From NCBI GenBank assembly GCA_009693245.1, contig SHXO01000002.1, forward strand, positions 6,280 through 70,279: 64,000 nucleotides of DNA, in the 5' to 3' direction. Position 1 is the stretch's first letter; every line of letters begins with the position of its first letter. A program made the translations under genes and the position numbers. Source of the DNA: Betaproteobacteria bacterium (lineage in GTDB: Bacteria; Pseudomonadota; Gammaproteobacteria; Burkholderiales; SHXO01). The notes under the pieces are model-generated. The model did no database searches and had not been told where the DNA came from. It saw only the letters and a program-made list of their open reading frames with translations. Shown piece after piece: positions 3,582 to 51,219 of this stretch.

Positions 3582-4973
3582 CTACCCGGCTTTATTCTTC
3601 ACCGGGCGCTTCCATCCGGCGATGGCGGTCTGCTTGGCGCGGGAGATGGTGAGTTCGCCAGGCGGGGCATCCTTGGTCAGCGTGGTGCCCGCGCCCAAGG
3701 TTGCTCCCTTGCCCACCCTAACGGGGGCGACGAGCTGGGTGTCCGAACCGATAAATGCGTCGTCTTCGATCACCGTTCGGTGTTTGTTGGCGCCATCGTA
3801 ATTGCAGGTGATGGTGCCGGCACCCACGTTGACGTTGCGCCCGACGGTGGCGTCTCCCAGGTAGGTCAGATGATTGACCTTGGAACCTTCTCCGAGATCG
3901 ACCTTTTTCATTTCCACGAAATTCCCCACGTGGGCATGGGCGGCGAGAGTGGTTTCGGGGCGGATTCGGGCGAAGGGGCCGATGCGGCACTCGGGCCCCA
4001 CTTTGGCGCCATCGATGACGGACATGGGCGCGATGACGGTGCCGGCGCCAATCTCGGCGTCCTTGATGTAGCAATTGGCACCCACCACCACCCCTTCCGC
4101 CAGATGCACCTTGCCTTGGAACACGCAGTTCACGTCGATCTCCACGTCCTGGCCGCAGTGCAGGTCGCCGCGGATGTCGATGCGGGCGGGGTCTCGCAAG
4201 GTCACCCCAACCGCCATCAAGCGCAATGCGTATTCGTGCTGGTAACGGCGCTCGAGCTCCGCCAACTGTGCGCGGCTATTCACCCCAAGCACTTCCCAGA
4301 GGTTGGCAGCGTTCACGGACGCTACGTTCATGCCCTGGGCGATGGCCCGAGGCACGATATCGGTCAAGTAGTACTCGCCCTGGGCGTTGTGGTTCTTGAG
4401 TGACATTAACCAACCCGCCAAGGCCTTCGTGGGGGCGGCCACGATGCCGGTGTTGATTTCGCGCACTGCCTTTTCCTCGGCGGTGGCGTCTTTTTCTTCG
4501 GCGATGCGCAGGAATTTCCCGCTCTTGTCGCGAATGATGCGCCCGTAGCCGGCCGGGTCCGCCAGCTCCGCGGTCAGCACGACCAAGGTTTGCGCGCTGG
4601 CGCACACGGCGGCCAGCGTTTGCGCCCGAATCAATGGGACATCGCCATAGAGCACCAGGGTGCGCCCGCTGAGGGGTATGAGCGGCATGGCTTGCGCCAC
4701 GGCGTGACCGGTCCCCCGTTGGGGCTCTTGCTTGACGAAACGCACGCCGGGTTGCGCAAAGGCATTGGGTACTTGTTCGCCGCCATGGCCGTACACCACG
4801 ACGATATGCGCCGGATTCAAGGTTTTGGCGGCATCGATCACATGCCCCAGCAGGGGCTTATGGGCCAGCCGGTGCAAAACCTTGGGCAGGTTGGAGTACA
4901 TTCGCGTACCCTTTCCAGCGGCGAGGATGACGACGCTTAGGTCAGAGGTGCTGGAATCCGTCATGTTCATCAA
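3582..4973 (-). CDS. glmU: bifunctional UDP-N-acetylglucosamine diphosphorylase / glucosamine-1-phosphate N-acetyltransferase
   Basis: 463-aa ORF with LAAGKGTRM, a left-handed beta-helix hexapeptide region and a NYDGANKH motif. It lies directly upstream of glmS. The exact start among MMNM is uncertain. Confidence 0.97.
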
Positions 4974-5171
4974 GCGGGCTTGGGGAATGCTGCTGTAATT
5001 ACGTGGCGAGTTTTAGTGTGGCGGGGCCCATAATATGCCACCGGATTATCCCATAGCACCTTGCGCGCAAAATCACAGCGCAGGAGCTATGCCAGGCTTT
5101 GGCAGGGTGAGGCCTGGGCTTAAGCGGGATGGATGGGCGGACGTTAATGGAAGACTTGTGTCTGAAAAGGA

Positions 5172-5666
5172 ATGCTCATGGGATGGTGGCGGACAGGATT
5201 AGTCGGAGTGTTCATGGCGGGCTTACTCAGCGCGAGCCCGGCTCAGGCCCAACTCACGGAAGCCCGCGTCGAGCAGTTTCTGGTGCAACTGGAACTGGCG
5301 GCCGAGCGGCGAGATATTGCTCACATCATTGACTCGCTCGCCGACGACGTGGTCATCGTGTTTCGCATGGCCGCCCTGGGCGGCATGCCCGACATGACCT
5401 TGGACAAGGTTCAGTACCGCGATTTCTTGGTGGGCGCTTTTGCCACCATCGAAGCCCATGGTTCGCGGCGTTACGGAACCAAGATCACCGTCTCGCCGGA
5501 TGGGATGTACGCTGAAGTGTTCGCCAATGTGGAAGAGACGACCACCATGAAAGGGAGGACCTCCGTTCACACCTCGCAGCAGACGGTGCTGGTCGCGCTG
5601 GCGAACAACAAACTTCAAGTGAAGCGCGTTTTCGCCGAGGTGATGCCGGGGGGCAGCGATACCTAG
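5172..5666 (+). CDS. secreted hypothetical protein, NTF2/SnoaL-like (DUF4440-like)
   Basis: 164-aa ORF with a signal peptide (...LLSASPAQA). The pattern resembles NTF2-fold proteins. It is divergent from glmU and convergent with the mauG-like gene. Confidence 0.55.
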   Translation: MLMGWWRTGLVGVFMAGLLSASPAQAQLTEARVEQFLVQLELAAERRDIAHIIDSLADDVVIVFRMAALGGMPDMTLDKVQYRDFLVGAFATIEAHGSRRYGTKITVSPDGMYAEVFANVEETTTMKGRTSVHTSQQTVLVALANNKLQVKRVFAEVMPGGSDT

Positions 5667-6787
5667 CGCGATATGTGATCGGTGCCGAAACCTTCGCGGG
5701 CGGCACGAATTAGCTCGCCGATGTTGCCAGCGCTTAAGGCGCGAAGAAAAGTAGCCAGCGCGCGTTTCTCTCCTGGGCTCAAGCCGAGGGGCTTGATGAG
5801 CTGGTCCACATCCTTGCCCTGGCCGCCTCGGTCATAGAAAGCGATCACCTCTTCCAGAGTGCTCATGGACCCGTCGTGCATGTAAGGGGCGGTCAAGGAG
5901 ACGTTACGCAAGCTGGGTGTGCGAAAGGCCTTGCGGTCCTTGTCTTCGCCCGTGACTTCCCAGCGCCCTAGATCCAAAGCGGGCGGATCGATGGCCCCCT
6001 CCAGATCTTGCCGCGCGACGAGTACCTCTACTCCGGGCGCCAGTTCGACTTTCAGTTTTTCCGGCGGCGCGGCTGCTCCAGCACCCGTACGGTGGAACCG
6101 GTGATCGGTAAACAATGCCCCATCTCGGCCAGCGCTGTGACACTGTGCGCAACCGGCTTTCCCCTGAAATAGCTCGAAGCCCTTTTGTTCTTCCACTGAA
6201 AGAGCGTCCGCCTCACCGCCAAGGTACCAGCGATCGAAGCGCGAGCCTCCGGCGACCACGGTGCGCTGGTACGCCGCCAGGGCGGCGGCTACGCTAGCCT
6301 CGCCGATGCCCTGCGCAGGGAAGGCCTGTGCAAAAGCATGCTCGTAACCAGGCAAGGCGCGGATGCGCTCCACCACCTCGGATTTGGACGCGTTGTTCAT
6401 CTCGTCCTTGGATAGCAGCGGTGCCCATACTTGCGATTCCAGCGAGGCTTCGCGCCCGTCGTGGAAAAAGCTCCGCTGGTACGCCACGTTGAGCGACGTG
6501 GGCGCATTACGCCGCAGGCTCTTGCCGAACATCCCCACGGAGGTGGCGACCTCGTTGGAGGTAAACCCCTGTTCGGGCACGTGGCACATGGCGCAGGACA
6601 TGGTTTGATTGGGCGACAAACGCCGGTCGAAGAACAAGCGGCGCCCGATCTGCGCCTGCACGGCATCGGGAGGTTCCATGGGCGGCAATCCCAACGAGGA
6701 CGGTGGCGCGGCGTGTGCCGCGAGTACACCTAGCGCGACCAGACTAATTCGCGCGCTGTTCTTCCAGAAGGAGGGATTGAATGTCAT
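5663..6787 (-). CDS. di-haem cytochrome c peroxidase family protein (MauG-like)
   Basis: 374-aa ORF with a signal peptide and two CxxCH motifs (CAMCH, CAQCH). It is the last gene of the mtoX-SCO1-mauG arrangement. Confidence 0.85.
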   Translation of the reverse strand: MTFNPSFWKNSARISLVALGVLAAHAAPPSSLGLPPMEPPDAVQAQIGRRLFFDRRLSPNQTMSCAMCHVPEQGFTSNEVATSVGMFGKSLRRNAPTSLNVAYQRSFFHDGREASLESQVWAPLLSKDEMNNASKSEVVERIRALPGYEHAFAQAFPAQGIGEASVAAALAAYQRTVVAGGSRFDRWYLGGEADALSVEEQKGFELFQGKAGCAQCHSAGRDGALFTDHRFHRTGAGAAAPPEKLKVELAPGVEVLVARQDLEGAIDPPALDLGRWEVTGEDKDRKAFRTPSLRNVSLTAPYMHDGSMSTLEEVIAFYDRGGQGKDVDQLIKPLGLSPGEKRALATFLRALSAGNIGELIRAAREGFGTDHISR

Positions 6788-7421
6788 TCACGACCACCTG
6801 CGGCAAGAGGTAGGAGGTGGTGTAAATCTCCCGTACCCAGCCCGTGGCATCGATGAGAAAGACCTTGAGTACGTGGCTAAAGGAGCGCGAGGCCACTCCA
6901 GTTTTGGGATCCACGCGGATACGCACGTCCTGGCCTAGCCCCTTCAACAACGGGGCCAACTCGCGGTAGGAAGGCGTGGTGAGGAAGTACCACGGCAACC
7001 CGCTCTTGCGGCTCAACTGGCTCTCGCCGTAGTCCGCCATGACTTCTGGCGTATCCACGAGGGGATCGAAACTCAGGCTGATGAGTTGTACCCGGCGCTG
7101 CGCCGGCGCATCCGCCTGTAACGTGGCTTGGATTTGATCCATCACATCGTAGGCAAGCGGACAACCTTCGGGATCCATGCAGGTGGTGAACATGAAAGAC
7201 AGCAACGTAACCTTGCCTTGCGTAAAACGCGACAAGGCCACCGCTTGGGCGTTGGTGTCCAACACCGTTCCTTGGGGCACGCGTTGAATTTTTTCCAGCC
7301 GGTAGGTGCCCGCGGCGGGCGGCACGAATTCCAACCTTGCACCGCGCTCGGCTTCGTGAGCTGAAGCGGTGGCGGCGGCCATCGCGAGGAGGGCCGCCGC
7401 CAAGCGGTACGGCAAGGGCAT
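6744..7421 (-). CDS. SCO1/SenC family copper chaperone (thioredoxin-like)
   Basis: 225-aa ORF with a signal peptide and the motif region FMFTTCMDPEGCP. Its ATG overlaps the mtoX stop (TAATG). Confidence 0.85.
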   Translation of the reverse strand: MPLPYRLAAALLAMAAATASAHEAERGARLEFVPPAAGTYRLEKIQRVPQGTVLDTNAQAVALSRFTQGKVTLLSFMFTTCMDPEGCPLAYDVMDQIQATLQADAPAQRRVQLISLSFDPLVDTPEVMADYGESQLSRKSGLPWYFLTTPSYRELAPLLKGLGQDVRIRVDPKTGVASRSFSHVLKVFLIDATGWVREIYTTSYLLPQVVVNDIQSLLLEEQRAN

Positions 7422-8749
7422 TATTGCTTTGCCGCCAGGGTATCCGTCGTGGGAGCGTAAGCGGACTTTAATTCCGCGGTGCCAAACTTCATGTGATGAG
7501 CACGGCCCAGGCGCAACTTATTAAAGTCCACCTCGAAAGCCTGGGTCAGTTCATGGCCATCCCAATTAAAGGCGCGCAGCACTTGCTCGTTCATGTCACC
7601 GCCCTTATCCCAATTGGCCAGCAAGGATGAGGTGATGTACACGCGCTTGCCATCCCAGCTTTGGGAGACCATGTTGACCTGCTTACCCGTCTGCTTGGCG
7701 TAGGTCTGCTTCGGCGCTTCCGGGTCTGTGAGGTCAAAGTAACGCGTCATCCCATCCATGAAGGTGTTCACCCAGAGTCCCTTGGCGTCGGCACTAATAC
7801 TGATGTCCACGGGCAATGGAATCTTGGAGGGGTCGCCGATGGTGGCCACTTCCTTGGCTTCCCACTCGCCTCCCGCATCTTGCTTGATGAGCCAGATCTT
7901 GGAAGTGAGAGCCGTGGCCACCACGGCCCAGTTATCTTCGCGCTTGAGCGACCAACGTACTTCCAAGGGGCTGCCCGGAACGGAGAAAATCTTCTTGGGC
8001 TCCATCGCTTTCAAGTCCCACATCACCATGGTGCCGCCAAAACGCTTCATAGCCTCGGCGTCTTGGATCAACTTGCCGATGGGCATCATGTAATTGTTCC
8101 AGCCCGTGAAGCTGGAAGTCAGCAGCGCGTTGCGCGAGGGATTGATACCGATGTCGTAACCGTAGCCGTCACCGCCATCGCTGGTGGGCATGGGATAAGT
8201 CTGGATGAGATCGCCGCTGTTGTTGAACAGCAGCATCCCCGTTACCCCGCCATGGTCCTTGGTGTTGGCAAGCATCTGCACCAGCATGCGCCCAGGCAGG
8301 GCGTAGAAGGTATGCGGGCCCACCAAACCTGTCTGCTTGGGCAGATCGGAAATGGTTTTCACCAAGCGCGGCATCGCGGGTTCCGTGCCGACGTCGAAAA
8401 TGTAGATCCGGCTATCGTCCAGGCCGCCCGCCCACAGATAGCGCCGGTCATCGGTGAAGCCCATGTGGTGAGCTTCGCCACGCCGCTTCACCGAGAAGGA
8501 ATGAATCACCTTGCCGTAGCGAGGCGATTCGGGATTGACATCGATGGTCACCAGCTTGTCCGATCCATCGCCTAGGCCTTCCACGCCCAGGGTCCATACG
8601 TAGACGTAATCTTCCTGCCCCTTGATGAGGTTGCTCATGTAGGGCGAATTGCAGGTTTCGTCGGCGGCCGCTGGAACGCCAACGGCGGCCAGCGATAGCG
8701 CAAACGCAAGACTCCTAAATACATTTTTCATGTCTTTCCTCCTGTCCAT
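7421..8749 (-). CDS. mtoX: selenium-binding protein (SBP56) family, putative methanethiol oxidase
   Basis: 442-aa ORF with a signal peptide. SBP56-type sequence is present (DYVYVWTLGVEGLGDGSDKLVTIDVNPESPRYGKVIH...). SCO1/senC and a mauG-like gene follow it. Confidence 0.85.
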   Translation of the reverse strand: MDRRKDMKNVFRSLAFALSLAAVGVPAAADETCNSPYMSNLIKGQEDYVYVWTLGVEGLGDGSDKLVTIDVNPESPRYGKVIHSFSVKRRGEAHHMGFTDDRRYLWAGGLDDSRIYIFDVGTEPAMPRLVKTISDLPKQTGLVGPHTFYALPGRMLVQMLANTKDHGGVTGMLLFNNSGDLIQTYPMPTSDGGDGYGYDIGINPSRNALLTSSFTGWNNYMMPIGKLIQDAEAMKRFGGTMVMWDLKAMEPKKIFSVPGSPLEVRWSLKREDNWAVVATALTSKIWLIKQDAGGEWEAKEVATIGDPSKIPLPVDISISADAKGLWVNTFMDGMTRYFDLTDPEAPKQTYAKQTGKQVNMVSQSWDGKRVYITSSLLANWDKGGDMNEQVLRAFNWDGHELTQAFEVDFNKLRLGRAHHMKFGTAELKSAYAPTTDTLAAKQ

Positions 8750-8822
8750 GGGGTTGCGTCATGGCCACCAGAGCGGCGGCAGCGGCGAGGATAAGCGATA
8801 GAGCGTGGGGTTGCAAACGCAC

Positions 8823-9974
8823 TCACTTACGTTCCCGCCATCGCAGCGCGGCGGCTCCGCCGCCCGCGACTACTGCCGCCATGGCCCAGAGCATCGCGGC
8901 GGCCCCGAGCACGGAGCCGAAGGCGCCGAACATCAATGGCAGCACCACGTGGCTGCTGTTCATGATCGTCGTGCGTACCCCGAGCGCCTCCCCGACGCGT
9001 CCCTCCGGCGAGCGTGAATGCAGAAGCGACATCACATTGGGTTGCGCGGACCCCAGTCCGCAGCCCAGCAGGAAGGCCACCATCATGAGCGGTGCAAGCG
9101 ATGAGAAGAGCGGGAACAAAGCGAAGCCCAGGCTAGTGTTGAACAAGGTGTACGTGAGCACCTGCCACTCGCTGAAGTGGCGAGACAGCCATGGCATGGC
9201 AAGGCGCACGCTGAAGGTCGCCGCCGAGAAGGCACCCAACACGAAGCCCACCTGAGAGGCCGATAATCCCACGTGAGTGCCATGTACCGGCACCACGAAA
9301 GTCATCAGATCCCATGACATGGAGATCAATCCCGTGGTGATGAGCACGCGCCGCAGCTCTGTATGTTTCAGCAACTCGAAGGGATGCATGGGCTCCGGCG
9401 CGCTGCCCCGGTGCTTGTGCTCGGGGAAAAGCCCGCGGTTTAGCCAGAGCAACCCCAACGCCAGCAGCACGACAACCACCAACACGGCGAAGGTGGCGCG
9501 GTGGCCGAAGCCGTCGATCAGCAAGCCGCTCACGACGGGTCCTGTAAAACCCGCGATGGAGGCGCCCATCGCCAACCAGGAAAACGCCGCCGCGCGGCGA
9601 TTCGGATCCGCGCGTTCACCGACGATTTGCTGGATGGCGAGCATCACCAAGGTGGCTCCGGTGCCGATCATGGCCGCCGCGACCAGCAGGGGCGCGACAT
9701 CGCTGGTCGCGTAGGGAAAGGCCGCAGGCAGCAACATGCCCCCCAGCATCAACAAAACTCCAACGAGCGTCGGCCGCCACGGCCCCACGACATCCAGCCA
9801 CCGCCCCGCGCGCACGGCGATCAACATCGGCACCAACGCAAACAACGCCATCACGACGCCAACAGTGAAGGTAGACGCCTTGTTCGCCAGCGCATAGAGG
9901 GAACCCGTCATGCGCGAGGCGACAAAAGCCATATGCGTGAGCACGGCAATCGCGATGATGCGGGCGAGTATCAT
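8823..9974 (-). CDS. MFS transporter
   Basis: 383-aa ORF that is highly hydrophobic, with about 12 predicted TM segments typical of the MFS fold. Confidence 0.85.
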   Translation of the reverse strand: MILARIIAIAVLTHMAFVASRMTGSLYALANKASTFTVGVVMALFALVPMLIAVRAGRWLDVVGPWRPTLVGVLLMLGGMLLPAAFPYATSDVAPLLVAAAMIGTGATLVMLAIQQIVGERADPNRRAAAFSWLAMGASIAGFTGPVVSGLLIDGFGHRATFAVLVVVVLLALGLLWLNRGLFPEHKHRGSAPEPMHPFELLKHTELRRVLITTGLISMSWDLMTFVVPVHGTHVGLSASQVGFVLGAFSAATFSVRLAMPWLSRHFSEWQVLTYTLFNTSLGFALFPLFSSLAPLMMVAFLLGCGLGSAQPNVMSLLHSRSPEGRVGEALGVRTTIMNSSHVVLPLMFGAFGSVLGAAAMLWAMAAVVAGGGAAALRWRERK

Positions 9975-10333
9975 GGAGAATTGCTTCCGACTGGGTGAGG
10001 GCGTTTCAGCCTAGAGGTTGCGAGCCGTTAGTCTGGCATGGAATCTACCGGCTTACGGCTAGCTCCTCTCAAACGTTCGCGTCGAGTAGCATTCATTTTG
10101 CGGGCGTTATGGTGTTGGCTTCGATAACCGCATCATGCTAGAAATAGCCGCCTGCATCTTCACTTTTCGCCACGCCTTGCGAAATAAATCCCCCGCACCG
10201 CCGAGGTTTTGCAAGAGCCTCTATCGTCATAATGTTTCCGTGCCTCAGACTCGAATCCGTCCGCCAACATCAATCCGCGCATGCGCCATTTCGCCAAGTA
10301 CACTCAAATTGACCCGCGGGACCGAGAAGTAGC

Positions 10334-12022
10334 GTGACACGCCGAGCGTTCTTGGAAGTGTTGGCCGTGGCAGGCATGGCGGGCCTAAGCGGCTTCGCGA
10401 GGGCGGAGTCGTTGTACGCTCGCCCGCGCTTCGGCAACGTCCACCTGTTGCACATCACGGATTGCCACGCTCAGCTCTTGCCTATCTATTATCGAGAGTC
10501 CAGCCTAAATATCGGGGTGGGCAATGCGAAGGGCAAGCCGCCGCATTTGGTGGGCGAGGCCTTCGCGCGACATTTCGGTTTGGCGAAAAATTCGCGCGAA
10601 CTACATGCCTTCACCCATTTGAATTTCACGGAGGCCGCGAATGTGTTCGGCAAGGTAGGCGGCTTCGCGCATCTTGCAACCTTGGTCAAGCAACTCAGAG
10701 CGGACCGGCCTAACGCATTGTTGTTAGATGGCGGGGATACGTGGCAGGGTTCCGCCACCGCCTTGTGGACTCAAGGCCAGGACATGGTGGATGCCTGCAA
10801 GCTTTTAGGCGTGGATGTGATGACTGGGCATTGGGAATTCACCTTGGGTGCCGCACGCGTGAACCACATCATCGAGCACGATTTCGCCGGGCACACCGAT
10901 TTTCTTGCGCAAAACGTGCACACGCGAGATTTCGCGGATCCCGTTTTTCCAAGCCATGCGGTAAAGGAGTTGAACGGCGTTCCCGTGGCCATCATCGGCC
11001 AAGCCTTTCCTCACACTGCCATCGCCAACCCCGCTCACCTGGTGCCAGATTGGTCCTTTGGGTTGCATGAGAACAAGTTGCAAGACTTGGTGGACAGTGT
11101 TCGCGGCCAAGGTGCGAGAGCGGTCGTGCTGCTATCTCACAACGGCATGGATGTGGATCTCAAGCTCGCGTCTCGTGTGAGCGGCATAGATGCGATTCTC
11201 GGCGGGCATACGCACGATGGTATTCCGAGCCCGGTGCTGGTGAAGAACCGTTCGGGGCAGACTCTGGTCACCAATGCCGGATCGAACGGAAAATTCCTCG
11301 GCGTACTGGACTTCGATGCGCGGCAAGGGCGAGTGAAGGATTTTCGCTATGCGCTTTTGCCGGTATACGCGAACCTCTTGCCAGCCGATCCGGCCATGCG
11401 TGATCTCATCGAGAAATCGCGCGCGCCCTTCCACGCCAAACTCACGCGCAAACTCGCGGTCACGGAAGGACTTCTATACCGCCGGGGAAATTTTGGCGGC
11501 ACCTTCGACCAACTTCTGCTCAACGCCCTGATGGAGGTCAAGGGCGCGCAAATCGCGCTATCGCCGGGATTTCGCTGGGGCACGAGCTTGCTGCCGGGTG
11601 ACGCGGTCACGGTGGAGGACGTGTTCAACCAGACCGCCATCACCTACCCCGCCACCACGCTCACGGACATGAAGGGCGGGCAAATCAAGGATATTCTGGA
11701 GGATGTCTGCGACAACCTGTTCAACCCCGATCCCTATTACCAGCAAGGCGGCGATATGGTTCGGGTGGGCGGGATGACTTACACATGCACTCCCAACGCC
11801 AAGATGGGTGCGCGTATCGGCGATATGCGTATAGGCGGCCGGCCCATCGAGGCGGACAGGGTCTATAAGGTGGCGGGCTGGGCCCCGGTGAGCGAAGGCG
11901 TCACTGGCGAGCCCATGTGGGATCTGCTACAAACCTATCTGCGCGCCCATCCCAATATCGAGCCTCTCACGCCTCAAGTGCCGAAGCTGGTGGGCGTCGA
12001 AGAAAATCCAGGAGCAGGGTAG
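10334..12022 (+). CDS. soxB: thiosulfohydrolase SoxB
   Basis: 562-aa ORF starting at GTG. It has a Tat-type leader (TRRAFLEVLAVAGMAG) and the SoxB-typical LLHITDCHAQLLPIYYRESSLNIGVG. It belongs to the 5'-nucleotidase/metallophosphatase family. Confidence 0.93.
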   Translation: MTRRAFLEVLAVAGMAGLSGFARAESLYARPRFGNVHLLHITDCHAQLLPIYYRESSLNIGVGNAKGKPPHLVGEAFARHFGLAKNSRELHAFTHLNFTEAANVFGKVGGFAHLATLVKQLRADRPNALLLDGGDTWQGSATALWTQGQDMVDACKLLGVDVMTGHWEFTLGAARVNHIIEHDFAGHTDFLAQNVHTRDFADPVFPSHAVKELNGVPVAIIGQAFPHTAIANPAHLVPDWSFGLHENKLQDLVDSVRGQGARAVVLLSHNGMDVDLKLASRVSGIDAILGGHTHDGIPSPVLVKNRSGQTLVTNAGSNGKFLGVLDFDARQGRVKDFRYALLPVYANLLPADPAMRDLIEKSRAPFHAKLTRKLAVTEGLLYRRGNFGGTFDQLLLNALMEVKGAQIALSPGFRWGTSLLPGDAVTVEDVFNQTAITYPATTLTDMKGGQIKDILEDVCDNLFNPDPYYQQGGDMVRVGGMTYTCTPNAKMGARIGDMRIGGRPIEADRVYKVAGWAPVSEGVTGEPMWDLLQTYLRAHPNIEPLTPQVPKLVGVEENPGAG

Positions 12023-12089
12023 GTGGACTGTCACCGTTTGACTGGCTCGTGCGTTTTGGAGGCGTTAAGAACTCATAAAGGAGACCCCG

Positions 12090-12383
12090 ATGAAAGCCCT
12101 ATTCACAGCAGGCGTTCTAGCGCTCGCCAGCGCAAGCGCTCACGCGGCGGACGCAAATCACGCCAGTTATCTTGCCTCCACCTGTGCCAGCTGCCATGGC
12201 ACGGACGGCAAGTCCACCGGATCGGTGGCGAGCCTGGCGGGCCAGCCGGCGGCTGACTTACTCACCAAGTTGGCCGAATTCAAGGACGGTACGCGCCCGG
12301 CGACCATCATGCACCAGATCGCCAAGGGCTACACCGGCGAGCAACTCAAACTCATCGCCGAGTTTTTCTCGGCGCAGAAATAA
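12090..12383 (+). CDS. mono-haem c-type cytochrome, likely the cytochrome subunit of flavocytochrome c sulfide dehydrogenase
   Basis: 97-aa ORF with a signal peptide, a single CASCH motif and the RBS aaaggag. It lies immediately upstream of the flavoprotein gene. Confidence 0.8.
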   Translation: MKALFTAGVLALASASAHAADANHASYLASTCASCHGTDGKSTGSVASLAGQPAADLLTKLAEFKDGTRPATIMHQIAKGYTGEQLKLIAEFFSAQK

Positions 12384-12393
12384 GGAGGCGGTC

Positions 12394-13668
12394 ATGACGG
12401 ATAGACGCGATTTCATCAAGTCGGCCGCCGCGGTGGCGGGGACCGCCATCACAGGTTTCCCGGCCATCGTGCATGGGATGGGGCAAAAGAACGTGGTCGT
12501 GATCGGCGGCGGTTACGGCGGTGCGACCGCTGCCCGCTACGTCATGCGCTGGGGCGGGCCGAAGTTTCGGGTGACGCTGATCGAGCGCAATACGCAGTTC
12601 ATCTCCTGCCCGCTTTCCAATCTGGTGCTGGGCGGCAGCAAGACGCTCGCGGACATCACGCGCTCCTACGATGGTTTGCGCAAGGAGCTCATCATGACTG
12701 TGCAAGACGAGGCCGCGGCCATCGACCCGGCCGCCCATTTGGTGAAGCTCAAGAGCGGGCGCAATATCGACTACGAACGCCTGATTGTCTCCCCTGGGGT
12801 GGATTTTCTCTGGGACCAGGTGGGCGGAATGAGTAGCCCCGAGGCGCAAGCCAAGATCCTGCACGCCTGGAAGGCGGGCCCTCAGACCGTGGCGCTACGC
12901 AAACAATTGGAGGCCATGGACGACGGCGGCGTATTTGGCATTTCCATTCCGCTGGCGCCCTATCGTTGCCCGCCCGGGCCCTACGAGCGGGCGTGCCAAG
13001 TCGCGCATTACTTCAAGCAATACAAGCCGAAATCCAAGGTGCTGGTGCTGGACGCCAATGACAAAATTGTTTCCAAGCCGGCCCTGTTCGAGAAGGCTTT
13101 CAAGGAGCGTTACGCGAACATCATCGAATACCGGCCCAATAGCAAGCTCGTGGAAATGGATATCGCTACCAACACCGCGAAATTCGAGTTCGACGATGTG
13201 AAGGCGGACGTGTGGAACGTGATCCCGCCCCAGCGCGCCGCGGACATAGCCAAGCAGGCGGGGTTAATCACGGCCAACAATAAATGGTGCGAAGTGAACT
13301 GGCTGTCCATGGTCTCCAAGGCGGATCCGGACATCCATGTCTTGGGCGATGCAACGCTCTCCGGGCCCATGATGCCCAAGTCCGGGCACATGGCGAACCA
13401 GCATGGCAAGCTGGCCGCCGCCGCCATCGTGAACCTCATGAACGGCAAGGAGCCCAATCCCGAACCCGTGGTGATGAACACTTGCTACAGCTTCTTGGAC
13501 GACAAGAGCGTGATCCACGTAGCCTCGGTGCACCAGTACAACAAGGAAAAGAAAGTAGTGGAGCCGGTGCAAGGAGCGGGCGGCGTTTCCAAGGAAGCTT
13601 CCGAGCTGGAAGGCGAGTATGCGTTCTCCTGGGCGAAGAATATTTGGGCGGATATGCTTGGGGGGTGA
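12394..13668 (+). CDS. fccB: flavocytochrome c sulfide dehydrogenase flavoprotein subunit (FccB/SoxF-like)
   Basis: I start this at the ATG after the RBS aaggagg, which is in frame with track ORF 12172-13668. It has a Tat leader (MTDRRDFIKSAAAVAG) and the FAD fold VVVIGGGYGGATAARY. Length is 424 aa. Confidence 0.88.
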   Translation: MTDRRDFIKSAAAVAGTAITGFPAIVHGMGQKNVVVIGGGYGGATAARYVMRWGGPKFRVTLIERNTQFISCPLSNLVLGGSKTLADITRSYDGLRKELIMTVQDEAAAIDPAAHLVKLKSGRNIDYERLIVSPGVDFLWDQVGGMSSPEAQAKILHAWKAGPQTVALRKQLEAMDDGGVFGISIPLAPYRCPPGPYERACQVAHYFKQYKPKSKVLVLDANDKIVSKPALFEKAFKERYANIIEYRPNSKLVEMDIATNTAKFEFDDVKADVWNVIPPQRAADIAKQAGLITANNKWCEVNWLSMVSKADPDIHVLGDATLSGPMMPKSGHMANQHGKLAAAAIVNLMNGKEPNPEPVVMNTCYSFLDDKSVIHVASVHQYNKEKKVVEPVQGAGGVSKEASELEGEYAFSWAKNIWADMLGG

Positions 13669-13789: not shown

Positions 13790-15253
13790 TCACCGCCTAC
13801 AACACTTCTTCTTACCCGGCGTTGCATACGCCCATTCGATCACGGCGTCGTGAAAGCCTTGCGAGGCGCGCGCGCTTGCGCCGTTGACTAGGCACACCAC
13901 GACCACCATGCGGTCCTCCTCGTCTTGAACGAAACCCACGCTGGCGCGCACGCCCTCTAGGTATCCCGTCTTGATGTGCGCGCGGCCGGTGGTGGGGCTC
14001 TCCTTCAAGCGCTTGCGCATGGTGCCGTCGATGCCGCTCAGGGGAAGGGACGCGATGAATTCGGGCGCGAGCGGAGATATCGCCGCCCACAGCAGCAGCT
14101 TGCCAAGATGTTCCGGGCTGATCCGCTCCGCGCGTGAGAGGCCCGATCCGTTTTCCACCACCAACTCCGGAAAATCGAAGCCCTCGCGATTAAGCCATTG
14201 CCTGAGCGCGTGGGCCGATTTCTCCGCGTTCAGGGGCGGCACGTTCTCGGCGAGACCTAGAGCGAGAAACAAGTGCCGGGCCATGACGTTATTGCTGAAT
14301 TTATTGATGTCGCGAATGAGTTCGGAAAGCGGTTCCGATCCATGGGTTGCAATCAATTGGGCATACATGGATCCGGTGCCATCGCTCGCTTGCCCTGAGA
14401 GAGTTCCCCCCAATTCGCGCCATAACTCGCGGAACACGGCCTCGATGTATCGCGGCGAGGACAGCGGGCTATAGTTCCGCGACGTTTCTCCGCAGGGGAT
14501 GGGAAAATCCCCCTTGAATAGCATTTGGCCGGAGCCCGCGTCGTGGACGGGGTCCTGCGGCCAATCGGCGCAGGCCATATCCACCGCGTGAAGTTGGTTG
14601 AGCAACGTGATCTGCGGCAGTGGCGGATGCATGAGTATTGCCACTTGGCCAGAATCCGCCTTCGGTATGAAATTGAGCCGAACGGCGTTGAAGTTCACCA
14701 GCAACGCATCGGGCAGCGCGTTGTAGGGACGCAGACTATCGCCATCGAAATCTCCGGGCGCGCCATTCACCGTTTCGAAAAAGGTGCGGTCCAGCACCAA
14801 CTCCCCGTGGATGTGCCGAACGCCCCGAGCGCGAACTTCGCGCAGCAAGGTCCAGAATTCCTCCAGGGTGAGCTTGGGATCCCCGGCCCCTTTAAATACG
14901 AGGTTTCCGTCCAGTACGCCGTCCTTGACGGGCCCGTCGGCGTACACCTCCGTGCGCCAGGAGTAAGCGGGGCCCAGGACATGCAAGCCCGCGAGGGTCG
15001 TGACGAGCTTCATGGTCGAGGCGGGATTCATCGGGCGCTGCGCGTTATGAGCTAACCGCGCGGGCTTGGTCCCTACCACGTGAACGTACAAGCCTAGGTC
15101 TTCCGCGCGCAAGCCATGCTCCTTCGCGGCGCGCGCCAAGGGCTCCGGAAGAGGGGCAGTGCGCGCCCCGCCCGCGCACAGGAAAAGTACCGCCAGCAGG
15201 AGTGCTTTTATAACTCCACGATGGTTCCGCGTTCGGGCACTTTGGTGCTCCAT
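13790..15253 (-). CDS. dacB: D-alanyl-D-alanine carboxypeptidase/endopeptidase (PBP4 family)
   Basis: Sequence is PBP4-like (PASTMKL SxxK motif, ...FSNNVMARH...). I place the start at MEHQ (15253), preceded by gaggag and followed by a signal peptide. The track ORF extends to 15355. Confidence 0.88.
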   Translation of the reverse strand: MEHQSARTRNHRGVIKALLLAVLFLCAGGARTAPLPEPLARAAKEHGLRAEDLGLYVHVVGTKPARLAHNAQRPMNPASTMKLVTTLAGLHVLGPAYSWRTEVYADGPVKDGVLDGNLVFKGAGDPKLTLEEFWTLLREVRARGVRHIHGELVLDRTFFETVNGAPGDFDGDSLRPYNALPDALLVNFNAVRLNFIPKADSGQVAILMHPPLPQITLLNQLHAVDMACADWPQDPVHDAGSGQMLFKGDFPIPCGETSRNYSPLSSPRYIEAVFRELWRELGGTLSGQASDGTGSMYAQLIATHGSEPLSELIRDINKFSNNVMARHLFLALGLAENVPPLNAEKSAHALRQWLNREGFDFPELVVENGSGLSRAERISPEHLGKLLLWAAISPLAPEFIASLPLSGIDGTMRKRLKESPTTGRAHIKTGYLEGVRASVGFVQDEEDRMVVVVCLVNGASARASQGFHDAVIEWAYATPGKKKCCRR

Positions 15254-16595
15254 CCCAACTCCTCTTGAATGACTTCGCTGAAAGCGATGGCCGCCGCGTA
15301 CTCGCCATGCACGATGTAGGTCTAGCGCGGCGGCGCGGGCATTTGCCGCATCCATTGCAGCAATCCTTCCTGGTCCGCGTGCGCGGACAAGCCGCCGATG
15401 GTATGAATGCTTGCGCGCACCGCAATCTCGTCGCCGAAGATGCGCACGCGGGACGCGCCATCCACCAAGCGCCGGCCAAGCGTACCTTGCGCTTGGAATC
15501 CCATGATGATTACACAGGACTCTTCCCGCGGAAGATTAGCCCGTAAATGAAACTTGATGCGCCCCGCATCGCACATGCCCGAGCCCGCGATGATGATGGC
15601 ACCTTGTTCGCGGCGGCTTAGCTCGCCGGATTCATCGGCGCTTTCGACGAAACGGATATTGAGATCGTGCTCTTGTTCGATTCCCGCTTCGAACATGGGC
15701 GCCACGTCCGGGTCGAGCACCTTCCAATGTTTTAGAGTGGCCGTGGTGGCCTTGGTGGCGAGTGGCGAATCCACGAATACATCCATGGCGGGTAAGCGGC
15801 CCTCCCGGTGCAAGCGGATGAGCAGATACAAAAGCTCTTGCGTTCGGCCCACCGCGAAGGCCGGAATGACGATATTGCCGCGTTTGAGCGCGAGGGTACG
15901 CGTGATGATGTCCACGAACTCATCGAGCGTCGCGGCCAGCTTGCGGTGCTGGCGGTTGCCGTAGGTGGATTCCATCACCAAAACGTCCGCTTGCGCCAGG
16001 GCTGCCGGGTCGCGCACCAGTGGCCGCCCGCGATTACCGATGTCTCCCGAGAATACTAGACGCCGCGTGACGCCATCTTCCGTGATGGCCAATTCGATGA
16101 ACGCCGCGCCCAGAATGTGGCCCGCCTCCCGGAAACAAGCGCGCACGCTAGGGCACGGAGAAAACTCTTCGTCATGGGAATGGGCCCGCAGTTGCGCCAA
16201 GGTTCGCAGTGCTTGAGTGGCCGTGTAGAGCGGCTCTCCCTGTTTAGCGCCGTGGCGCTGCTCCTTGCGCCGTTGCGCTTCGTACTCCTGAATGTGGGCC
16301 GCGTCGAGCAGCATGGGTTCGAGCAGGGCGCAGGTGGCGGCGGTCGCGTGGATGAGCCCTTGGAATCCCATCGCAATCAAACGAGGCAGCAGCCCGGAGT
16401 GGTCGATGTGGGCGTGTGTGAGCAAGACAAAATCGAGGCCGTGTATCCAGGGGCCCAATGCAACGCGGTTTTTCTCCGAAGCATCGCGCCCCCCTGAAAA
16501 AGCCCGCAATCCACCAGAAAGCGCGCGTCATTGCTCTCTAACAGAAAACAAGAACCGGTGACCTCTCGTGCCGCGCCGAGGAATTGGAGATTCAT
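15208..16595 (-). pseudogene. MBL-fold beta-CASP ribonuclease (RNA-metabolising metallo-beta-lactamase), disrupted by one frameshift and one in-frame TAG
   Basis: [36 protein letters not shown] (from ATG 16595) jumps frame at the G6 tract 16489-16494 into [14 protein letters not shown]...[11 protein letters not shown]... TAG at 15322-15324 is then followed in frame by TYIVHGEYAAAIAFSEVIQEELGWSTKVPERGTIVEL*, with TAA at 15208-15210. Confidence 0.8.
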
Positions 16596-21833: not shown

Positions 21834-21909
<76 letters not shown>

Positions 21910-48168: not shown

Positions 48169-48627
48169 CTAGTGCAGCTGCCCTGGCGGTACTGGCGCCA
48201 TGGGGAGCGCCATGACATCGATCCCTTCTTCTTTAAGTTCCTTCGCTTGTTCGACAGTAGCTTGGCCGCGAATAGCGCGTTCGGGAGCTTCACGGTAGTG
48301 AATGCGGCGCGCCTCATCGGGAAACTTCTTGCCCACGTCCTCGGTGTTCTTGAGCATGTAATCTAGCACCTTGGCGCGCAGTTCGCGAAGTGCTTCTTCG
48401 GGGAAGCGCGCGAGATTACGGGGACCATCGTTCTCCCGCTTCTCGCCGCTCTGGCTGGAACTGCAACGGCCGATGTTGGGCGCCGAGGGCTGCTTGACGA
48501 CTCCGTTGGAACCGCACACGGGACAGCTCACGGACAGAGCTTGCGCCTGCTCGTCGAATACTTCCGGCGAGGCAAACCACCCCTCGAAGGAATGGCTGTT
48601 GGTGCAGGCTAAGTTATATACGACCAT
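48169..48627 (-). CDS. DUF1178 family zinc-ribbon protein
   Basis: MVVYNLACTNSHSFEGWFASPEVFDEQAQALSVSCPVCGS... is the typical DUF1178 N-terminus. Length is 152 aa. Confidence 0.75.
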   Translation of the reverse strand: MVVYNLACTNSHSFEGWFASPEVFDEQAQALSVSCPVCGSNGVVKQPSAPNIGRCSSSQSGEKRENDGPRNLARFPEEALRELRAKVLDYMLKNTEDVGKKFPDEARRIHYREAPERAIRGQATVEQAKELKEEGIDVMALPMAPVPPGQLH

Positions 48628-48720
48628 GGGACGATCTCTTATTCTCGTTAATCTCGTATCACTCTACTGTTGGCAACCTTGGAGAAGAATTTGATCCGCC
48701 AAAGCTCCGTCCAGGGGATT

Positions 48721-48780
48721 AACAAGGGGCCACCCCTTGTTCCTTCCTGGGGGATAAACAAGGGGAGCTCTCCCCTTGTT
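48721..48780. repeat. two tandem near-identical perfect hairpins
   Basis: aacaagggg-cca-ccccttgtt (48721-48741) and aacaagggga-gctc-tccccttgtt (48757-48780). Each is preceded by gggat(t/a)a. Confidence 0.7.
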
Positions 48781-49182
48781 CGTAGCATGAATTTTGTCCG
48801 GCACAACAGTCACCCTTTTTGGTTTCAGCTGCGCCCGCTTAAGACTCACTCCGCCGGGGATTGTGCCCCAGCTCACAGAGGCGCGCAAACGCTTCCGTAA
48901 AGGTTGAGCAATCCGTGGTCCAAATGACCAACAGAAATGCTGCCGGCCCCATGTGGCATGCCGCTGGGAACGTAAGGCCTTGATTGGTCCGAACAAGTGC
49001 CTCTGGACTTGCACGCCCGGGGGCGCCATGCCCGGGCTTGCGCATCCTCTAGATTGCCGAGATTTCGGTTCCGGCGTAGATATTTCTCTTAATTTAAGGC
49101 GGCGCTAACGAGGGGAATTATTTGGTATCTCGTCACAGGCGAACGACAACAACATTCCACGATATTGAAGGGGGCTAGGATC

Positions 49183-49650
49183 ATGAGGAGGGTATTGGTA
49201 GCGGTGGATGGTTCCAAGAGTTCGGACCGCGCGGTGGAGGAAGCGGTCAAGACGGTCAAGCACGGGACCAATGCCTAAGTGCATCTGGTCAATGTACAAC
49301 CCAGGGTCTTGAGCGACGATGCGCTAATCGGTTTACGAAAGGAAGACATCGAGCGCTATTACTACGAGCAAAGCTCCAAGGCGCTGTCCTGGGCGGAAAA
49401 AATACTGCGCGAGAACAGCGTGCCGTTCACTTCTCACCGCATCGTGGGCCCGGCCGCGCAGAGCATCGTCGCGCAAGCGCGCGACCTTCAATGCGACGCC
49501 ATCGTGATGGGTACGCGAGGGCTAAGCCGCATCAACGGATTGAGCTTAGGCTCGGTGTCCATGAAGGTATTGCACTTATCCGACCGTCCGGTGACGCTCG
49601 TACGGGGCGACCCTCCCGTGGAATTCAGCGGACGTTTGAGCGCGAGTTAG
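49183..49650 (+). pseudogene. universal stress protein (UspA family) with an in-frame TAA at codon 32
   Basis: ATG 49183 (RBS agga) gives MRRVLVAVDGSKSSDRAVEEAVKTVKHGTNA-TAA(49276-49278)-VHLVNVQPRV...AIVMGTRGLSRINGLSLGSVSMKVLHLSDRPVTLVR. The track lists only the 3' part, from GTG 49279. Confidence 0.8.
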
Positions 49651-50857
49651 GGTCGGCTGACAACCCTAGAGCTCCAGAATCCAACGCGTGACAGCGCCGG
49701 TTTCCTCCTTGCTCAGACTCGCCTTGACGTGGCCCTCTTCGGCTTTGGACAAGGTAATGATGCGATAGCGCTCGCGGTGCGGCTTGACCCCCAGGTCAAG
49801 GGCACCGCGAGGTGCGCTACGGGCGCCGCCACTATGTTATTGATCGATGGTGGGGAAAGATCGATTGCGCGCGCAAGATCATGGATTTCGAGAATCAAGT
49901 TAAGGTGAAGATGGATTTTGGGAATGTGTGGCCATCATACTGAGTTGCTAACCCATAAGGATTGAGGCGACGCGAAGCGTCGTTTCAATCCGCAGTTCAA
50001 GAAGCCCCGGGGGCGGACGGCGGTGTGTATTTGGGCGCGAGCCCGCCGAGCTGCTCGGCGCCGGATGAAGGAAGGAAAAGCAAACCAGCGGTTTGCGGAA
50101 GAGTGTGGTTCTTGGGTTTGGTTTGTGATTTGGTTTGGGTGTGGCTTTGGATGTTGACGTGCCCTCCCCTTCTGAACCGCCGAGTAACGCAGGAGCGAAG
50201 GGGGATGTCGCCGAGGACTGTTCGACGGCCGCGCGCTTTTTGCGCGGACTAGTTCCGCAGGCGCCCATCGCTTCGAGTAACGCAGGGTACCCTGCAAGGG
50301 GCGGGGCAGTAGGGGCGGCCTTTTTTCGCTTACCTTTTTTGGCCGCGCAAAAAAGGTGAGTAGCTGCCGGGCTACCCCCGGCGACTTTTCTATCCTGGTA
50401 GATTAACTAATCAGACGCACAGTCCGAGACTAATCAATACGGCGCCCCCATCCCAACCTTCCCCCGCAAGCAGGGGAAGGAGCAAACAAGCGGTCATCGG
50501 CATTGGCAGCGAATGGTCACGCAGAGCTTGATCAGGCGAAAGTTACTCCAAGGCGCGGCGGAAAATCAGCGCGCAGCCATGCCGTCTTTCTAGTGCTCGC
50601 ACAGCCCTCGCGCAAGAACATGCGACAAGGAAGAACAAGGGAGCGTGTATACATATCCGGCACTTTGACGGTAAGAATGCTGCCCGTTTATGCAGCGAAG
50701 GCACGACAGATTCTCGCCCCGCGCGATTAGCGCTTATGCTTTAGCGGCTTCAAGAACCCCCAGCGATGGTCACGCGATTCTCATTGCCGCGCCGGAAGCC
50801 TGGATGCTTTCCCGGGGCCCTGGAAGAGACTCCACGGCGCGCGCGTCGCGAATTGCG

Positions 50858-50957
50858 GCCATGAACCTGTAGTGGCGTCTTTTCCCTCATCCCCATCCCT
50901 TCTCCCACGGGGAAAAGGGAGCGTCGTGCTCTCCGCCCGAGCGGAGAGGTTCATGGC
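50858..50957. repeat. MITE-like 100-bp element bounded by an 11-bp inverted repeat
   Basis: gccatgaacct (50858-50868) pairs with aggttcatggc (50947-50957). These enclose a REP-like core and a perfect hairpin ctctccgc-ccga-gcggagag (50929-50948). Confidence 0.5.
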
Positions 50958-51219
50958 TAGGTGCGCGCACCACTTGCGAGTCGCATGCCTGGCTGCGAGA
51001 CGTCCAAACCTATCCTTCGCAGGGTCAACCGCCAAAGCCCCGCAAGCGAGTGATCGCCATGGGAGATAGGCGCGGCTGCTCTTCATAGTGCAATGAGCCA
51101 CCGCCTGCCGCACGTGAGCCAAAACCATGGATAATTGCCGGAGTTACAGGGGCCGTAAAAAGAGTGAGGGGGCAGCAGGTGGCAGGCAAGGATTTATCGG
51201 CGGGGGAGCGGGTCGTCCA

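Follow-up and report, generated by a model that had tools for sequence, protein, structure and literature searches.

Does a gene deposited only as 'selenium-binding protein' in an uncultured betaproteobacterium encode a methanethiol oxidase (MtoX), and what would the two genes behind it contribute to that enzyme? The gene lies in a stretch of 64,000 nucleotides of contig SHXO01000002.1 (assembly GCA_009693245.1, positions 6,280 to 70,279; this whole stretch is called the window below). It encodes a protein of the SBP56 family and is followed by genes for a SCO1/SenC-family protein and a MauG-like di-haem protein, all three co-directional and all on the minus strand according to the list of open reading frames and the Pfam families (Table 1). 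The initial annotation had described a complete mtoX-SCO1/senC-mauG-like cluster here and left its strand unstated; the three reading frames are present where it had placed them, with the Pfam families it had named. The locus is very probably an orthologous mtoX-SCO-mauG operon, acting by the mechanism set out below, and it is a routine orthologue of an already-described kind of cluster, here in another uncultured betaproteobacterium. In this study I also show that one tryptophan of MtoX, Trp211, is coupled in evolution to the presence of mauG.

Identity of the SBP56 protein

The first gene product matches Pfam SBP56 (E=7e-45) and scores 734.1 bits on the NCBIfam equivalog model NF052453, 'methanethiol oxidase', against a cut-off of 650. 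The MtoX proteins of Ruegeria pomeroyi and Hyphomicrobium sp. VS, run as controls, both exceed this cut-off (759 and 713 bits, respectively), whereas non-MtoX SBP56 proteins reach 159 and 126 bits. A neighbour-joining tree (100 bootstraps) groups the window protein with the Hyphomicrobium VS and R. pomeroyi enzymes in an 18-member clade of 100% support and leaves five other SBP56 proteins outside it. For Hyphomicrobium sp. VS, the sequence used was a machine-read copy from the paper's supplement, with a few reading errors. Identity with the window protein amounts to 63.7% for this purified enzyme and 58.2% for R. pomeroyi SPOA0269; the remaining SBP56 proteins, set off by a long branch, are about 29% identical to the window protein. 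The same gap appears in a tblastn search of plasmids, which is bimodal, with MtoX-type genes at 55-58% (R. pomeroyi mtoX included) and all other SBP56 genes below 30%. A search by sequence for a solved structure of MtoX or human SELENBP1 matched neither, and returned only the Sulfolobus tokodaii protein 2ECE (E=1e-20). The model score, the placement among validated MtoX proteins and the conserved residues described below uphold the proposal that this is an MtoX-type protein; the deposited name is out of date and should give way to methanethiol oxidase.

The start of the gene has to be shifted with respect to the initial annotation, which had let the cluster run to 8749. The mechanically called reading frame, 7421..8749 (442 amino acids), begins at an upstream in-frame ATG at 8749. 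A second in-frame ATG at 8731 is preceded by AGGAGG at 8743-8738 with a spacing of 6 nucleotides, and a 436-residue database protein (P0001) is 100% identical to MtoX begun at this codon. Because of this ribosome-binding site and this identical protein, ATG 8731 seems the likelier start, and residues are numbered from it.

At the N-terminus, residues 1-23 form a predicted signal peptide, MKNVFRSLAFALSLAAVGVPAAA / DETCNSPYM, with the surroundings of the cleavage site reading ...PAAA/DETCNSPYMSNLIKG. The site was placed by sequence and homology, and the resulting mature N-terminus, DETCNSP, agrees with the one sequenced for the Hyphomicrobium enzyme, DETXNSPFTTALITG (PMC5739008). For the latter enzyme, His89, His90, His140 and His412 were proposed as copper ligands (PMC5739008). 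All four are kept in the window protein, as H88, H89, H140 and H412, so the conservation of copper ligands that the initial annotation had named as a check is observed. The cysteine near the N-terminus is present as well: the activity of the R. pomeroyi enzyme (RpMTO) depends on Cys28, on which a Cys-S-S-CH3 adduct forms (PMC10936201), and Cys27 is its equivalent here, within the motif T-C-x-S-P-Y-M. Finally, Trp211 and Trp374 were proposed on structural grounds as precursors of a cofactor like tryptophan tryptophylquinone (TTQ) in Hyphomicrobium MtoX (PMC5739008), and both are found in the window protein, W211 in TGWNNY and W374 in LANWD.

The activity of human SELENBP1 requires H73, H74, H137, H140, D189 and E252 (PMC10362175). 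The window residues aligned to these positions are H88, H89, H140, Y143, D193 and E257; the human sequence used agreed at 14 positions with the table in PMC10362175. Tyr143, Ala144 (human Cys141) and Asp326 (human His329) differ from SELENBP1 throughout the MtoX clade and are traits of that clade, no defect of the window protein.

The SCO-family and MauG-like proteins

The second gene product matches Pfam SCO1-SenC (PF02630) at E=6e-13, with 49.3 bits against a gathering score of 22.8 and over 126 of 134 profile positions, which bears out its family assignment; no NCBIfam model matched it. SCO proteins bind copper by a canonical motif, CxxxC plus a distal histidine. The window protein lacks the canonical CxxxC and retains two cysteines and one histidine at another spacing, as C81-MDPEG-C87 followed by proline (C-x5-C-P), plus His183. 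This spacing is shared by the SCO proteins linked to mtoX, among which C-x5-C is kept in 78/78 homologues and the histidine in 76/78, with the consensus C-x-D-x-x-G-C-P-L. By these motifs, the mtoX-linked SCO proteins form a variant SCO subfamily. Their genes keep close to mtoX: in 78 of 81 loci (the best 80 genome loci plus R. pomeroyi), a SCO homologue stands directly after it.

The third gene product was called a di-haem MauG-like protein, and its family, haem motifs and axial tyrosine support that name: it carries a Pfam CCP_MauG domain (E=8e-52), two CxxCH haem motifs, CAMCH at residue 65 (His69) and CAQCH at 213 (His217), and a tyrosine, Tyr318, where the six-coordinate haem has its axial ligand. 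Tyr318 is aligned with MauG Tyr294 through an ungapped stretch of 41 residues, and with Met258, the haem ligand of the Nitrosomonas europaea cytochrome c peroxidase; alignments to 1IQC and 3HQ7 likewise put the tyrosine in place of the ligand methionine of bacterial di-haem peroxidases. All 30 mtoX-linked homologues whose alignment covers this position keep the tyrosine. The significance of such an axial tyrosine in MauG-type di-haem enzymes has been described (PMC6405878). Among solved structures, the nearest is that of BthA (6E1C), which is MauG-like and can reach a stable bis-Fe(IV) state (PMC6405878). At the position of the inter-haem tryptophan (Trp93 in MauG, also found in peroxidases), the window protein has His109, and the mtoX-linked homologues have histidine (22), arginine (7), tryptophan (2) or leucine (1). 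This recalls BthA, which has a serine there. Among the NCBIfam models, the MbnH family (TIGR04039) scores best, at 224.8 bits and below its threshold of 362.85, and the equivalog TTQ_mauG (TIGR03791) gives 216 bits against a cut-off of 444. From these comparisons, 'MauG-like' is the correct description of a protein that is no MauG orthologue; by type it belongs with the His-Tyr enzymes that oxidise proteins and not with the His-Met peroxidases.

Trp211 and the presence of mauG

The proteins encoded around mtoX vary among relatives, and this variation bears on what the di-haem protein acts upon. In species-representative genomes, at least 568 stretches with an MtoX relative were found, of which the best 80 loci were kept. 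A second set consists of 80 loci from metagenomes, with R. pomeroyi as the basis of ranking (the loci are numbered L001-L081 and L091-L170). Together they gave 120 scorable loci; those with neither SCO nor mauG nearby were left unscored and not counted as lacking mauG. The metagenome set added few informative cases, with W211 near-universal and many loci without SCO and mauG nearby.

The copper histidines H88/H89/H140/H412, D193, E257, C27 and W374 are invariant in the first 81 loci, and on the 120-locus tree the copper histidines, Cys27, Asp193, Glu257 and Trp374 show no inferred change at all. Trp211 behaves differently. Among the first 81 loci, where mauG is present in about 32, tryptophan occupies this position in 31/32 clusters with mauG and in 4/40 with SCO but no mauG. 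Over all 120 loci, 73 clusters with mauG have Trp211 and one has another residue, versus 8 and 38, respectively, where mauG is absent and SCO kept. The replacing residues in clusters lacking mauG are Y, R, K, S, I, A, H, F or N. No conserved gene takes the place of mauG downstream of SCO in these loci, where the neighbours vary (glmU or unrelated genes).

Since the losses of mauG are few and clustered, about seven being inferred on the tree, I added a test per site. The overall substitution rate per branch length is similar on branches lacking and containing mauG (ratio 0.94, 401 alignment columns). Position 211 changes 15 times on branches lacking mauG and once on branches containing it, which makes it the top outlier of the 401 sites (binomial p=1.8e-6, about 7e-4 after correction). 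The next outliers are His160 (15 changes on branches lacking mauG vs. 3 on those containing it) and Asp105 (11 vs. 1). Residues 105, 160 and 211 are spaced 55 and 51 apart, about one propeller blade, and each lies 17-20 residues past the ligand ring 88-89/140/193. This spacing and constant offset suggest, from topology only, that Asp105, His160 and Trp211 form one site near the metal centre. A triad of histidine, methionine and tryptophan (H160, M216, W211) like the copper site of MbnP was also considered and rejected, because M216 fails the relaxation test: it shows 5 changes on branches containing mauG vs. 1 on branches lacking it, which reflects a replacement of methionine by arginine at the level of a clade and not relaxed selection. 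W211, H160 and D105 were kept as the residues of the site.

On these alignments Trp211 appears to be under selection only where mauG is present, a pattern suggesting that MauG acts on Trp211 and that a MauG-independent MtoX subtype exists. I put the chance at even that MtoX enzymes fall into two such subtypes. In the MauG-dependent one, to which the window protein with its Trp211 would belong, the MauG-like enzyme would oxidise Trp211, at a site that also includes His160 and Asp105; a cofactor derived from the protein (TTQ-like, or of the kynurenine type as in MbnH/MbnP) or another metal site would result. The MauG-independent one would have lost mauG at least about seven times and let position 211 drift (to Tyr, Arg, Lys, Ser and others) while keeping SCO and the copper histidines. 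In the literature searched, mtoX, MauG and TTQ are linked only in the 2018 paper (PMC5739008), and methanethiol oxidase goes unmentioned in a 2025 review on cofactors derived from proteins. MbnH, which is MauG-like, makes kynurenine in the copper site of MbnP; given this precedent, TTQ is not the sole possible outcome.

Comparison with known systems

The same three genes in the same order are found in Hyphomicrobium sp. VS (KY242492; Eyice et al. 2018, PMC5739008), as the initial annotation had stated, and also in R. pomeroyi. The Hyphomicrobium protein, of 435 residues vs. 436 in the window, shares DETCNSP, the four copper histidines, Trp211 and Trp374. Hyphomicrobium VS is an alphaproteobacterial methylotroph, whereas the host of the window is an uncultured betaproteobacterium. 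Its enzyme has been purified and its copper content, electron paramagnetic resonance and extended X-ray absorption fine structure spectra and Km determined, whereas the window enzyme is known from its sequence; the flanks of the window cluster (a major facilitator superfamily (MFS) transporter, soxB, an fccB-like gene and an NTF2-like gene) differ as well. In R. pomeroyi DSS-3, SPOA0269-0271 encode MtoX, SCO and a cytochrome c peroxidase in the order of the window, with 58%, 39% and 47% identity for MtoX, SCO and the MauG-like protein, respectively. Both loci have the SCO motif C-x5-C, the MauG-type tyrosine and the N-terminal cysteine (Cys28 and Cys27). However, the R. pomeroyi genes are preceded by one for an IclR regulator and followed by one for a glutathione-dependent formaldehyde dehydrogenase, and the window cluster has neither; position 143 is Tyr in the window and Phe in R. 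pomeroyi, and position 413 is His and Ile, respectively.

Nearer in sequence is the Betaproteobacteria bin Ga0077526 (Table S7, PMC5739008), whose MtoX is 77-78% identical, falls in the same small subclade with 91% bootstrap, and has SCO and MauG genes directly downstream. It is the genome of another species and has no MFS, NTF2-like or soxB gene within 6 kb. The cluster is thus already known, with a 77-78%-identical betaproteobacterial example in the very paper that defined MtoX.

The SELENBP1-type proteins (human SELENBP1, S. tokodaii 2ECE and the cluster-1 methanethiol oxidases of Rhodobacteraceae) belong to the same family of seven-bladed propellers. They share with the window MtoX the HH motif, the first histidine of HxxH, the Asp, the Glu and the C-terminal His, and human SELENBP1 is likewise a Cu-dependent methanethiol oxidase (PMC10362175). 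However, they are 26-29% identical to it, the compared sequences have no signal peptide, and the second histidine of HxxH and the cysteine next to it correspond to Tyr143 and Ala144 in the window protein. In the literature read, linked SCO and mauG genes are reported for the MtoX clade only (PMC5739008).

Like the window MauG-like protein, the enzymes of the pairs MauG/preMADH (the precursor of methylamine dehydrogenase) and MbnH/MbnP, as well as BthA, have two c-type haems and a tyrosine in the axial position. MauG, MbnH and BthA oxidise tryptophans of proteins, and a protein tryptophan is the likely target of the window enzyme too. Its presumed substrate differs from theirs, being the SBP56 propeller and not methylamine dehydrogenase or MbnP.

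Proposed mechanism

In the proposed mechanism, a signal peptide of the Sec type would export MtoX and leave the N-terminus DETCNSP after cleavage. In the periplasm the enzyme would split the C-S bond of methanethiol with the help of O2, Cys27 and copper bound by the histidines H88/H89/H140/H412, D193 and E257 being close by. Formaldehyde would be released along with sulfur in reduced form, as H2S together with H2O2 or as sulfane sulfur. The SCO-family protein, which is coupled to MtoX in translation and has C-x5-C and a histidine, most likely supplies the copper. The MauG-like enzyme, with a His-Tyr haem of the type able to form bis-Fe(IV), most likely modifies MtoX oxidatively, centred on Trp211. 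The released sulfur could be oxidised further by the products of soxB and the fccB/soxF-like gene.

With respect to the products, the initial annotation had predicted sulfide, formaldehyde and H2O2, which is one of two published views. Work on the native enzyme in 2018 reported formaldehyde, H2S and H2O2 (PMC5739008); however, a 2024 report on recombinant R. pomeroyi MtoX gives sulfane sulfur and no H2O2 (PMC10936201).

Locus layout and flanking genes

The genes overlap at both internal junctions of the cluster, in different ways. Between mtoX and SCO the stop and start codons share one nucleotide at 7421 (TAATG), as had been described; the overlap between SCO and mauG, described in the same terms, is instead a coding overlap of 44 nucleotides (6744-6787). 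The three genes may well be co-transcribed. The 91-nucleotide spacer upstream of mtoX holds its ribosome-binding site.

Table 1. Features of the mtoX cluster and its neighbourhood, in window coordinates
Feature	Coordinates	Strand	Size or evidence
mtoX: predicted periplasmic Cu-dependent methanethiol oxidase, SBP56 family	7421..8731	-	436 aa
SCO1/SenC-family periplasmic protein, presumed copper chaperone of MtoX	6744..7421	-	225 aa, signal peptide
MauG-like di-haem enzyme, presumed to modify MtoX Trp211	5663..6787	-	374 aa, signal peptide
Spacer from MFS stop codon to mtoX start, with mtoX ribosome-binding site	8732..8822	-	91 nt
MFS transporter, upstream of mtoX on the same strand	8823..9974	-	383 aa; Pfam MFS_1 E=4e-44
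Small secreted NTF2-like protein, convergent with mauG	5172..5666	+	AlphaFold2 model and Foldseek
soxB (thiosulfohydrolase), divergent from the MFS-mtoX unit	10334..12022	+	NCBIfam TIGR04486, 822 bits (cut-off 550)
FccB/SoxF-like flavoprotein of flavocytochrome c sulfide dehydrogenase	12172..13668	+	Pfam FCSD_central E=2e-42, FCSD-flav_bind E=6e-23

The initial annotation had the cluster flanked by a secreted NTF2-like protein and an MFS transporter. Both are present, the former with a signal peptide, but neither belongs to a conserved unit: MFS, NTF2-like and soxB genes stand beside mtoX in 0/80 of the best related genome loci, and as parts of an mtoX unit all three were rejected on this count. 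The MFS gene is possibly co-transcribed with mtoX in the window.

The NTF2-like gene is convergent with mauG, their stop codons overlapping by 4 nucleotides, and its product has no Pfam or NCBIfam match. An AlphaFold2 (AF2) model (mean predicted local distance difference test score, pLDDT, 85.3; predicted template modelling score, pTM, 0.74) has as its top Foldseek matches the NTF2-like/SnoaL structures 3B8L, 3EF8, 3D9R, 3F7S, 2R4I and 1QMA, with probability 1.0 and TM scores of 0.6-0.84. Judged from the model, the assignment as NTF2-like with a signal peptide holds. The family is rare, with 16 homologues found. In relatives (L087:6001-6504 and L088:5083-5586) the gene is divergent from glmU-glmS and lies directly upstream of soxB, 68% identical to that of the window, or of tusA-dsrE; mtoX is absent from these loci. 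The NTF2-like protein appears to be tied to sulfur oxidation and not to mtoX.

On the other side, soxB is followed by the FccB/SoxF-like gene (10334-13668 together), and no soxXAYZ is adjacent. The flavoprotein frame is listed from TTG 12172, probably some 100 codons upstream of the true start; Pyr_redox_2 begins at residue 107. The flavoprotein is a plausible sink for sulfide derived from MtoX.

In some relatives (L005, L042, L057, L059) the order is dacB-mtoX-SCO-glmU. In the window, dacB (13790-15355) and glmU (3582-4973) bracket the mauG, NTF2-like, MFS, soxB and fccB-like genes besides mtoX-SCO, which suggests that these two housekeeping genes enclose a variable island where sulfur genes reside.

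Elsewhere the window carries housekeeping genes (glmS, groEL, recQ, hemA, prfA, metH, msrP, argS, priA), and Rfam and tRNA scans of the window gave only a tRNA-Phe at 21834-21909. A region of about 2.4 kb at 48600-51000 has few convincing reading frames and a G+C content of 53-57% vs. about 60%; no Rfam family or tRNA was found in it, and a frame at 49279-49650 is possibly universal-stress-protein-like, judged by its translation only. On the minus strand at 15322-16509 lies a gene for a metallo-beta-lactamase/beta-CASP nuclease of 395 residues, whose best NCBIfam match, to the type VII CRISPR Cas14 model, reaches 314 bits where 800 are required; the product is probably an ordinary beta-CASP ribonuclease.

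Alternative explanations

The family owes its name to selenium binding, and the deposited name follows it; together with the lack of genes for a methanethiol-producing pathway in the window, this could suggest a selenium- or other metal-binding protein, or one acting in thiol stress, with no dedicated role in methanethiol catabolism. I consider this hardly credible, as no selenium was found in the Hyphomicrobium enzyme (PMC5739008), selenium is dispensable for the activity of human SELENBP1 (PMC10362175), and the window protein lies inside the MtoX clade and outside the SELENBP1-like one. Moreover, an R. pomeroyi mtoX knockout loses methanethiol degradation (PMC5739008, PMC10936201). The adjoining soxB and FccB/SoxF-like genes, and the oxidation of several alkanethiols by human SELENBP1 (PMC10362175), allow a related thought, namely that another small thiol or a sulfide species is the true substrate and that the cluster works with soxB and fccB in lithotrophic oxidation of sulfur and not in organosulfur degradation. 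However, this neighbourhood is unique to the lineage, with soxB nearby in none of the best 80 related loci, and an orthologue has a Km for methanethiol of 0.2-0.3 uM (PMC5739008). Another true substrate is very unlikely, and a broader thiol specificity would extend the assignment as methanethiol oxidase, not contradict it.

Alternatively, the di-haem protein may be a plain periplasmic cytochrome c peroxidase that clears H2O2 made by MtoX and has no role in maturation. It is a member of the CCP_MauG superfamily, its N-terminal domain is matched by many solved bacterial peroxidases (E about 1e-40), and it stays below the MauG equivalog cut-off; release of H2O2 has been reported for MtoX (PMC5739008), and BthA with a mutated tyrosine ligand still reduces H2O2 (PMC6405878). 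However, the position of the methionine ligand of true peroxidases is held by Tyr318, without exception in the aligned mtoX-linked homologues, and the presence of the gene is tightly coupled to one MtoX residue, which is not expected of a mere scavenger. A role confined to peroxide removal is therefore unlikely.

Several observations weigh against the preferred reading of an MtoX operon in which SCO supplies copper and the MauG-like enzyme modifies Trp211. The DNA comes from a metagenome-assembled genome, and the evidence is that of its sequence. The window shows no methanethiol-producing, dimethyl sulfide (DMS)-oxidising or formaldehyde-oxidation genes and no regulator, and a consensus scan of 4900-10400 found no sigma-70 promoter and no terminator in the spacer upstream of mtoX. 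The SCO motif is non-canonical, and for every MtoX the delivery of copper by SCO is an inference. The di-haem protein scores below the curated thresholds for MauG and for MbnH and has a histidine for the inter-haem tryptophan. The coupling of Trp211 and mauG goes back to about seven loss events, mostly in two clades, and few independent events stand behind it. Finally, recombinant MtoX made in E. coli, apparently without SCO or MauG, was reported active (PMC10936201), and for this reason MauG-dependent modification may not be essential.

Implications

Methanethiol is a key intermediate in the turnover of DMS and dimethylsulfoniopropionate (DMSP), and with the window another uncultured betaproteobacterium, equipped in addition with soxB and an fccB-like gene, joins the many predicted methanethiol consumers. 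The Trp211 result gives a specific target for the long-proposed and unproven MauG-dependent cofactor of MtoX, and a large sister lineage works, if at all, without such a cofactor. If true, the division of MtoX into two subtypes would pinpoint the target residue of a protein-derived cofactor in a globally important enzyme of the sulfur cycle.

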